A stretch of DNA of 37,657 bases from a virus (taxonomy: Duplodnaviria; Heunggongvirae; Uroviricota; Caudoviricetes): the IMG/VR virus record IMGVR_UViG_2516143071_000007. The stretch is one strand, 5' to 3'. Position numbers and translations under genes: made by a program. Under the pieces are notes generated by a model. The model searched no databases. It saw nothing but the letters and a program-made list of their open reading frames with translations, and was not told where the DNA came from. Shown one piece after another: positions 37,327 to 37,657 of this stretch (within the stretch, counting starts at the first letter, position 1; each line of letters starts with the position of its first letter).

Positions 37327-37386
37327 CAGGCAGAATTGCCGGATTAACAAAAAAGCGATAGATTACGCGCGGGTGCCTTTCGGCTG

Positions 37387-37650
37387 ATGGTCGGAGGGAA
37401 TACCCGAAGGCCAGATGTGGAAAGGCCCCGGAAAACATCTCTGTTTAACCGAGGCCCTAACCGCATTACCTTGACAAGTGAAAGGTTAGCGCCTCTCCGG
37501 AAAAGGAGCAAGTGCTATGTCGCAAAAATCGCTTACGGCCATCACGTTCTGCGTGACGGCAATCCTCATCATCTGGATGCTGCACGGTTCACTGTGCGAA
37601 ATACGGATGAGCTTCTGGGGAGCGGAGTTTGCGGCGTTCTTACAGTGTAA
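37387..37650 (+). CDS. Possible mok-like overlapping leader frame for the hok-like gene
   Basis: 87-aa ORF in a different frame covering the hok-like ORF, as in hok/mok loci; no independent support. Confidence 0.25.
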   Translation: MVGGNTRRPDVERPRKTSLFNRGPNRITLTSERLAPLRKRSKCYVAKIAYGHHVLRDGNPHHLDAARFTVRNTDELLGSGVCGVLTV

Positions 37651-37657
37651 GCAGTAA
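37517..37657 (+). CDS. Hok/Gef-family type I toxin, 46 aa
   Basis: N-terminal TM helix then SLCEIR....EFAAFL..K matching the Hok family pattern; AGGAG Shine-Dalgarno; stop at the last 3 nt of the window. Confidence 0.65.
   Translation: MSQKSLTAITFCVTAILIIWMLHGSLCEIRMSFWGAEFAAFLQCKQ

Follow-up and report, generated by a model that had tools for sequence, protein, structure and literature searches.

Does the small toxin gene at the right-hand edge of a 37,657-nucleotide (nt) stretch of tailed-phage DNA (IMG/VR record IMGVR_UViG_2516143071_000007; the whole stretch is hereafter "the window") belong to the phage or to the flanking host chromosome, and is it part of a complete hok/sok-type locus? 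A preliminary description of the sequence had recognised a Hok-family type I toxin locus immediately after the gene ogr, had taken an overlapping upstream frame for mok, and had left the choice between phage cargo and flanking DNA undecided. We consider it very likely that the locus is a complete hok/sok-type type I toxin-antitoxin cassette, though about the last 120 nt of it lie outside the window, and that it is accessory cargo between ogr and the right attachment site (attR) of a P88-like prophage (Xuanwuvirus, P2-like) inserted in the ihfA terminator of Escherichia coli O104:H4.

Identity of the toxin gene

The 46-amino-acid product of the last open reading frame (ORF) of the window matches the Pfam family HOK_GEF (PF01848) with 29.9 bits (gathering score 22, E 4e-7, profile positions 5-42 of 42) and PHROG 251 with 80.6 bits (E 1e-22), and identical DNA in RefSeq is annotated as encoding a "Hok/Gef family protein" (WP_000078916.1). 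The PHROG label, "MokW-like host killing", is a family name and makes no statement about orthology. Residues 6-22 (LTAITFCVTAILIIWML) form a single uncharged stretch, as read from the sequence, and the peptide has the LCE and AEFAAF motifs. Among the residues listed as conserved across Hok proteins (M1, C, T, L-C-E and E; bioRxiv 10.1101/2025.08.07.668861), C12, T14, L26-C27-E28 and E37 are present, and C27, E28 and E37 are invariant in 17 members of the subfamily. An alignment of these 17 homologues was used for a profile search for relatives in genome contigs and IMG/VR; the viral scan gave only proteins 100% identical to the query, and the protein diversity considered here comes from the genome scan and from phage records. 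The hok frame was whole in 89 of 89 loci examined, with no frameshift and no nonsense change.

The closest named paralogue is HokA of E. coli K-12, which is 43% identical over the whole peptide and shares the MxQK start, the WM-x-x-SLCE segment and the AAFL-x-CK tail; identity is 39% to Hok of plasmid R1 and 31% to HokW. HokA is also the nearest curated model (NCBIfam NF007290), but the peptide scores only 34 bits against an equivalog cut-off of 89 and we therefore rejected its assignment as HokA. By these profile matches the ORF is a genuine Hok/Gef-family toxin gene and not a chance ORF, because identical DNA is annotated in RefSeq and ogr together with hok recurs, at a coverage of at least 80%, in 1158 of 5426 complete E. 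coli genomes. The preliminary description was thus right about the toxin family, the membrane-helix stretch with the LCE and AAF motifs, the position directly after ogr and the coincidence of the window's end with the toxin stop codon.

Position within the prophage

The last 658 bases of the window are 100% identical to genomes of the 2011 E. coli O104:H4 outbreak. In NC_018658 another 301 nt follow the window end before ihfA, pheT and pheS are reached. A three-way alignment of the phage-free site (attB) with attL and attR defined an att core of 25 base pairs that is the ihfA terminator (AAAGAAAAAAGGCCGC-NNA-GCGGCC) and places attR 259 nt past the hok stop codon. Features past the window end are given below in the coordinates of the extended right-end locus, L001.

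Window 59-83, no strand: attL core, with host DNA (the btuC side) to its left (three-way att alignment).
Window 37066-37326, plus strand: ogr, late-gene activator and last conserved P2-type gene before the cassette (Pfam Ogr_Delta, 52.5 bits; RefSeq annotation).
Window 37517-37657, plus strand: hok coding sequence, 46 amino acids, MSQKSLTAITFCVTAILIIWMLHGSLCEIRMSFWGAEFAAFLQCKQ (ORF list, Pfam, PHROG, RefSeq).
L001 6918-6942, equivalent to window 37917-37941 and outside the window, no strand: attR core (three-way att alignment).

A synthetic empty-site query (the btuC-ihfA junction) was contiguous in 5118 of the 5426 complete E. coli genomes, and hok lay between the two genes in none of them. 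Phages P88, Chuche, PhiR44_2, P884B11, 500465-2 and Citrobacter Shae_phiSM carry the cassette at 93-98% identity, and in P88 it again follows ogr; P88 itself came from induction of its lysogen (PMC5285337). IMG/VR holds 311 contigs that encode a relative, 80 of which were examined for neighbourhood and ends. In 70 of these 80, ogr precedes the cassette query by 12 nt, while the DNA 3' of the cassette varied among loci, with extra cargo in some and other attachment regions in others; the cassette therefore moves with ogr and not with the host site. Because hok lies inside the duplicated att core, the empty site is hok-free and the cassette is present in the induced phage P88, the cassette is phage cargo located between ogr and attR. 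Extension to the right and comparison of the att sites thus answer the question that the preliminary description had left undecided: attR lies beyond hok instead of between ogr and the toxin gene, and the phage-free junction has no toxin locus.

The ends of the window deserve a comment. It stops exactly at the hok stop codon and starts directly after the btuC start codon, and 47 of the 80 related IMG/VR contigs (L015 and 46 others) likewise terminate exactly at the hok stop. This suggests that the window and other IMG/VR prophage calls were probably clipped at gene boundaries. About 285 nt of the right prophage end were lost in this way, including attR and the 3' regulatory part of the hok mRNA, and about 120 nt of the cassette itself (3' untranslated region (UTR), fbi box and terminator) lie beyond the window; the left end retains about 58 nt of host DNA.

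Anatomy of the cassette

The cassette extends from window position 37336 to about 37777, beginning with the -35 hexamer of a predicted hok promoter 10 nt after the 3' end of ogr. A second copy in Shiga toxin (Stx) phages (933W, VT2-Sakai and others), with about 81% nucleotide and 74% protein identity to the window cassette, is similar to it from about 8 nt before the hok -35 hexamer to just past the GGCACCC (fbi) box, and these limits mark out the mobile unit. Its predicted parts are as follows.

37336-37364, plus strand: predicted hok promoter, -35 TTGCCG at 37336-41, 17-nt spacer, -10 TAGATT at 37359-64 (sequence; homology and conservation).
37371-37385, plus strand: predicted 5' end of the hok mRNA (+1 at 37371, GGGUGCC) and tac box, GGGUGCCUUUCGGCU (start of the Rfam match; fold).
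37451-37495, plus strand: Sok-target stem-loop, stem GAGGCCCUAAC / GGUUAGCGCCUC, with a 22-nt variable loop carrying YUNR (RNAalifold consensus).
37503-37508, plus strand: hok Shine-Dalgarno sequence AAGGAG, 8 nt before the ATG (sequence; conserved in the alignment).
L001 6667-6690, outside the window, plus strand: 3' UTR hairpin (fold, consensus).
L001 6717-6723, outside the window, plus strand: fbi box GGCACUC, GGCACCC in most relatives (alignment, fold).
L001 6743-6778, outside the window, plus strand: intrinsic terminator (terminator prediction).
37483-37511, minus strand: predicted sok promoter, -35 TTGCTC at 37511-37506, 17-nt spacer, -10 TAACCT at 37488-37483, overlapping the hok Shine-Dalgarno sequence (conservation; homology to sokW).
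37421-37476, minus strand: predicted Sok RNA of about 55-58 nt with a variable single-stranded 5' tail, a stem-loop at 37424-37456 and a UUU 3' end (fold).

The leader from the predicted mRNA +1 to the hok AUG (37371-37530) matches the full Rfam model RF01794 (sok/hok-leader, positions 1-157) with 48.4 bits (E 2.4e-9), below the gathering score and with several non-canonical pairs, and the GGGTGCC at its start is kept in all of 32 aligned variants except one masked sequence. The minimum-energy fold of the modelled 407-nt hok mRNA has a free energy of -175.9 kcal/mol (z -8.0), and in this in silico structure the first 15 nt (the tac box) pair with the fbi region at about L001 6709-6723, closing the 5' end onto the 3' end. 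The consensus fold computed with RNAalifold from the 32 unique variants instead offers an alternative 5' hairpin, in which tac pairs with GGAAAGGCCCC, the ucb box at 37419-37429. It also contains the Sok-target stem-loop, the 3' UTR hairpin and a 15-pair helix that hides the hok AUG against codons 35-40; this helix accounts for near-invariant synonymous sites at both ends of hok. Twelve pairs of the consensus show changes on both sides, and the substitutions observed in fbi are all C-to-U opposite G.

On the minus strand, the preliminary description had proposed looking for a Sok-like antisense promoter around 37430-37520, and the sequence does contain a predicted one there. Its -10 hexamer and the -35/-10 geometry equal those of sokW, and AGGTTAG is invariant in the 32 aligned variants; like the predicted hok promoter it is below consensus, as is the promoter of R1 sok. 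The predicted Sok RNA folds with -24.9 kcal/mol (z -3.7) and leaves a single-stranded tail of about 18 nt. The minus-strand version of its hairpin is the more stable one in each of 21 unique variants (mean -22.6 kcal/mol, against -14.0 kcal/mol for the plus strand), because a G-U pair in Sok corresponds to an A-C mismatch on the sense side, and two classes of the hairpin differ by fully compensated changes. Nowhere does the cassette vary more than in the Sok tail and the mRNA loop that it matches, and yet YUNR is kept at loop positions 9-10 in 13 of 13 loop variants, 11 of which have CUNR at position 9. Target loops of antisense RNAs have been described with this layout, and the idea of a U-turn in them was reportedly put forward by Franch and colleagues in 1999. 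A sokW construct without its promoter lost antitoxin activity, which was rescued by sokW in trans, and by our own reading of primer YO-421 the mutation may hit the -10 TAACCT that the two loci share (PMC8621323). On these comparisons a Sok-type antisense unit in the cassette is a well-supported prediction.

Possible mechanism and role

From the sequence, its predicted folding and the homologous loci R1 hok/sok and hokW/sokW we infer the following scheme. A weak promoter would give a hok mRNA of about 405 nt that is translationally silent, its tac box paired with fbi and its start codon held in the long-range helix. A convergent promoter over the hok Shine-Dalgarno sequence would give an unstable Sok RNA of about 55 nt, whose variable 5' tail would recognise the YUNR loop of the leader; the resulting duplex would lead to destruction of the mRNA. 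Were transcription of the cassette to stop, through loss of the prophage, shut-off of the host by an infecting lytic phage or possibly induction, Sok would decay first, the processed hok mRNA would be translated and Hok would depolarise the inner membrane. By analogy with other members of the Hok family, the cassette would be expected to kill post-segregationally.

What this would do for the prophage can be answered only tentatively. Addiction, i.e. retention of the prophage, is the role that we favour, at somewhat less than an even chance. It fits because the cassette is fixed at the prophage end and because the sole remnant in Salmonella enterica subsp. diarizonae (CCUG 30040T; L009 2275-3795) keeps an intact hok. 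This remnant occupies the same ihfA att site and consists of a portal fragment of about 200 codons (68% amino-acid identity to window 10909-11532), the intact hok cassette, the att core and ihfA, with ogr and the rest gone; the ORF upstream of its hok has no Pfam match but is recognised as a portal-gene fragment by tblastx against the window.

A main role in defence of the lysogen, i.e. abortive infection or exclusion, is a less likely but serious candidate. By analogy with R1, shut-off of transcription by a lytic phage could remove Sok and let Hok kill the cell before the invader finishes. One report states that R1 hok/sok on a high-copy plasmid lowered the plating of T4 by 42% and shrank its plaques by about 85% (PMC8621323). 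P2-like phages are known to carry anti-phage cargo, according to the P2 hotspot study (PMC9122126), and hok is enriched in prophages (bioRxiv 10.1101/2025.08.07.668861). Nevertheless, the hotspot study has 0 occurrences of hok, and the survey that reports the prophage enrichment did not find hok enriched close to defence systems. Hok, ParM, ParR and the other accessory ORFs had no match in PADLOC, and the cassette is nearly fixed beside ogr and is not swapped like hotspot cargo. Moreover, the position between ogr and attR is presumably not one of the two hotspots of the P2 hotspot study, which also speaks against defence.

A role at induction, like that of hokW/sokW, is rather unlikely. Loss of Sok might then let Hok harm the membrane and so speed or increase the release of progeny. 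P2-like phages are generally not SOS-inducible and have a holin-endolysin cassette of their own, which counts against such an aid to lysis. For hokW of the Stx2 phage Sp5, mitomycin C removed sokW RNA, HokW appeared in the inner membrane in a RecA-dependent manner and deletion of the locus halved phage release (PMC8621323). The analogy is limited, however, since hokW is of another subfamily (31% identity), has a mok and sits in a lambdoid, SOS-inducible phage, and that study left the second, 46-amino-acid hok copy of Sp5 unaddressed. That the cassette has no role at present we regard as less probable again.

The proposed mok frame

In the classical system, translation of hok is coupled to an overlapping frame, mok, and the preliminary description assigned this name to the following ORF.

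37387-37650, plus strand: overlapping frame of 87 codons, shifted two bases from the hok frame (ORF list).

The overlapping upstream frame does exist, but neither its position nor its identity is that of mok. It starts at mRNA +17, in the tac stem, which is not where mok begins in R1 or hokW. In R1 and in hokW alike, the mok ATG comes 8-9 nt after a GAGG box; it falls within the Sok target, 57 nt ahead of the hok ATG. At the homologous position the present subfamily has CCGCAUU or variants of it, with no ATG, GTG or TTG there in any of 13 loop variants. The only start codons in the loop are a GTG followed by a stop two codons later and, in two variants, a TTG 17 nt from the GAGG box, and in nine of the 13 a TAA or TAG stands inside the conserved YUNR motif itself. 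Some upstream ORF crosses the hok Shine-Dalgarno sequence in 33 of 51 unique leader-plus-coding-sequence variants, its start (-130, -103 or -100) and end (+82 or +133) varying with the lineage and with indels of one nt; in the other 18, which include P88, VT2-Sakai and several independent loop types and sub-lineages, there is none in any frame, stop codons closing the long frame (at -43 in P88). The 87-amino-acid product had no match to a protein family in Pfam, NCBIfam or PHROG. On these sequence comparisons we judge that a mok frame is not conserved in the 46-amino-acid subfamily and that the 87-codon frame of the window is lineage-specific and incidental.

Alternatively, the locus might be a classical hok/mok/sok locus in which the 87-codon frame, or a shorter version with a later start, is Mok, Sok blocks translation of mok, and hok is translationally coupled to it. 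In the window and the sequences closest to it, the shifted frame does run without a stop from mRNA +17 or +47 until seven nt short of the hok stop codon, some ORF across the hok Shine-Dalgarno sequence is present in the 33 variants mentioned, and a GUG at +47 (AUG at +45 in leaders one nt longer) stands behind a GAAGG box, directly at the 3' border of the stretch complementary to Sok. The burial of the hok AUG also suggests that a helper is needed to unfold it. Against this stand the 18 variants that lack such an ORF while keeping hok intact, the absence of a start codon where mok of R1 and mokW have their ATG, the stop codons in YUNR, the shifts of start and stop between lineages and the lack of a family match, and we regard this alternative as improbable. 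Without a conserved mok, Sok could act through RNase III decay alone or by way of a short ORF in the leader that begins at +45/+47. As a speculation, such an ORF, placed where the Sok duplex has its 3' edge, might be started by the conserved GAAGG-N4-6-AUGUG at +36 to +49.

It is more improbable still that the cassette is an inert passenger, with hok never translated or Sok not made, that persists by its linkage to ogr. Its Shine-Dalgarno sequence and AUG are paired in every state that we modelled, and it has no conserved coupling ORF. Several hok loci of K-12 are said to have been found inactivated by insertion sequence (IS) elements, reportedly by Pedersen and Gerdes in 1999. In particular, K-12 hokA is interrupted by IS150, which truncates its leader 32 nt upstream of hokA, so that its regulation is not comparable with that considered here. 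Yet hok is intact in all 89 loci, conservation extends to the regulatory boxes and helices and includes compensatory changes, and 42 of 45 diverse Hok homologues were toxic (bioRxiv 10.1101/2025.08.07.668861). Finally, the idea that hok is host chromosomal DNA flanking the prophage, with att between ogr and hok, could appeal to the window stopping at the hok stop with its right end out of sight and to the several hok loci on E. coli chromosomes (bioRxiv 10.1101/2025.08.07.668861), but it is already refuted by attR lying beyond hok, the hok-free empty junction, the cassette of induced P88 and the ogr-hok linkage kept despite differing downstream DNA.

Several points nevertheless weigh against the complete, regulated cassette that we propose. 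The hexamers of the predicted hok promoter agree with consensus at 8 of 12 positions, under the 9-of-12 cut-off of a generic sigma-70 scan, which found no promoter on either strand of the cassette, so that both promoters rest on homology and conservation. The Rfam score of 48.4 is below the gathering score of 59. Covariation comes mostly from a few helices, and the tac and fbi boxes are nearly invariant, so that their pairing is neither supported nor refuted by it. Folding of 3'-truncated and Sok-blocked mRNAs gave no change in the accessibility of the Shine-Dalgarno sequence or AUG and did not reproduce the switch. The absence of a conserved mok removes the counterpart of the coupling step of the textbook system, and the diarizonae remnant is one anecdotal case. 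Expression of the cassette, its toxicity and plasmid stabilisation by it are predictions for this locus.

Relatives and distribution

R1 hok/sok (parB), the model case for type I toxin-antitoxin and post-segregational killing systems, resembles the cassette in encoding a Hok/Gef peptide (39% identity over 31 residues), in an mRNA of about 400 nt with 5' tac/3' fbi closure (in silico for the present locus) followed by a terminator, in a convergent promoter for Sok that covers the hok Shine-Dalgarno sequence or lies shortly before it, and in a short antisense RNA with a single-stranded 5' tail, a stem-loop and a YUNR target loop. It differs in that the window cassette has no conserved mok, encodes a peptide of 46 instead of 52 amino acids and is carried by an integrating phage, that of R1 being on a plasmid. 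Only 35 of 72,556 plasmid records contain the present cassette, as against at least 5000 with an R1-type Hok.

The hokW/mokW/sokW locus of Sp5, experimentally shown to be a toxin-antitoxin pair (hokW/sokW; Takada et al. 2021, PMC8621323), is the only prophage hok with a functional study behind it, which found it to aid lysis and phage release after mitomycin C. It shares with the window cassette the sok -10 TAACCT, the -35/-10 geometry and a GAGGC...AGGTTAGC leader framework. It is nevertheless a separate locus of another subfamily: HokW has 51 amino acids and is 31% identical, and mokW is a 70-amino-acid in-frame extension (annotated orf74, "gef homolog") whose ATG, 9 nt after GAGG, is absent in the window cassette.

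A second hok cassette, of the 46-amino-acid subfamily, is present just after lom in Sp5 (VT2-Sakai) and numerous further Stx phages, and in many records it is unannotated. In Sp5 it lies at L003 2001-2373 (AP000363 44532-44904), separate from hokW at AP000363 57501-57713. We considered whether this 81% match might be hokW and rejected it, as the published primers and orf74 put hokW 13 kb away. The copy is of the same subfamily as the window cassette and is likewise mok-less, but it occurs in another phage type, after lom and before orf66, and its Sok tail and target loop differ in sequence.

Near-identical ogr-hok or hok DNA was also found in assemblies labelled Planococcaceae, Vagococcus and Xanthomonas pisi (L004, L005 and L008). 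The contigs concerned carry enterobacterial phage DNA, L005 also having an ihfA match, and these occurrences are most likely contamination or mislabelled assemblies and not true hosts.

Hok homologues as a whole number 6290 in IMG/VR, occur in 9.3% of Escherichia phages and are fourfold enriched in prophages, according to a survey that kept Mok and Sok outside its analysis and did not settle what they do (bioRxiv 10.1101/2025.08.07.668861). Public annotation already has the protein, its family assignment and its occurrence in P88-like phages, and prophage Hok has been published. In the incomplete library available to us we found no description of hok between ogr and attR or of the lack of mok.

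Other accessory genes of the prophage

Upstream of ogr lies an IS5-family element (annotated ISKpn26; window 35851-37018). Its right end, at 37018, is followed by CTAG at 37019-37022 and is 47 nt upstream of the ogr ATG. It is present in the seven full-length matches listed, all of them O104:H4 of the 2011 outbreak type or closely related records; the other 100% matches listed, including 2009 O104:H4 isolates, begin at query base 20 and hence lack the element at ogr. The insertion may split ogr from its promoter and thereby cripple late-gene activation of the prophage.

Between tail gene D and this element, a 389-amino-acid DUF3800 protein is encoded on the minus strand (window 34422-35591), for which PADLOC gave no match. 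In P88, ogr follows D directly, which makes the DUF3800 gene extra cargo of the O104:H4 prophage. At the left end, a 138-amino-acid ORF on the minus strand (window 190-606), between attL and the integrase gene and overlapping the int stop, had no match in Pfam or PADLOC and may be another small cargo gene.

Pairing with ParMR

The preliminary description had further pointed out that a phage-borne hok would join a parMR system, the same pairing as on plasmid R1. The prophage does encode ParM (StbA_N, 274.8 bits; ParM C-terminal domain, 228.4 bits) at 8385-9344 and ParR (Plasmid_stab_B) at 9214-9663, and ParM, with 312 bits to PDB 1mwk, is a close relative of R1 ParM. ParMR is 98-99.7% conserved in most deposited P88-like phages, and 95% in phage 503458. 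As gene content, the comparison with R1 is therefore true, but the pairing is frequent only: five deposited phages (P88, P884B11, PhiR44_2, Chuche and Shae_phiSM) have both ParM and the 46-amino-acid Hok, five deposited relatives have ParM only (some of these records may be trimmed before hok), and one has hok only. In the genus, an R1-like combination of the two systems is thus genuine and common without being obligatory; a functional link between hok and ParMR is conjecture.

Implications

In most respects the finding is an ordinary one, a real, complete and already annotated phage-borne hok/sok cassette, and the practical gains are modest. One of them concerns prophage calling, in which clipping at gene ends systematically loses the fbi box, the terminator and the att site. 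Two further possibilities would carry more weight, namely that the 46-amino-acid subfamily is a mok-independent form of hok/sok in which Sok acts by another route, and that hok and ParMR together form a plasmid-style maintenance kit. It is doubtful that even one of them holds, and what probability there is belongs mostly to the first. Should the second be true, integrating P2-like phages would live partly, or survive excision, as a low-copy episome. The apparent absence of mok from the subfamily, the sole mildly unusual aspect and one of possible specialist interest, would make it a natural test case for control of hok by Sok without translational coupling. Since about one in five complete E. 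coli genomes has ogr-hok, the action of the cassette, whatever it is, bears on the stability of a very common prophage type, including that of the 2011 O104:H4 outbreak strain.

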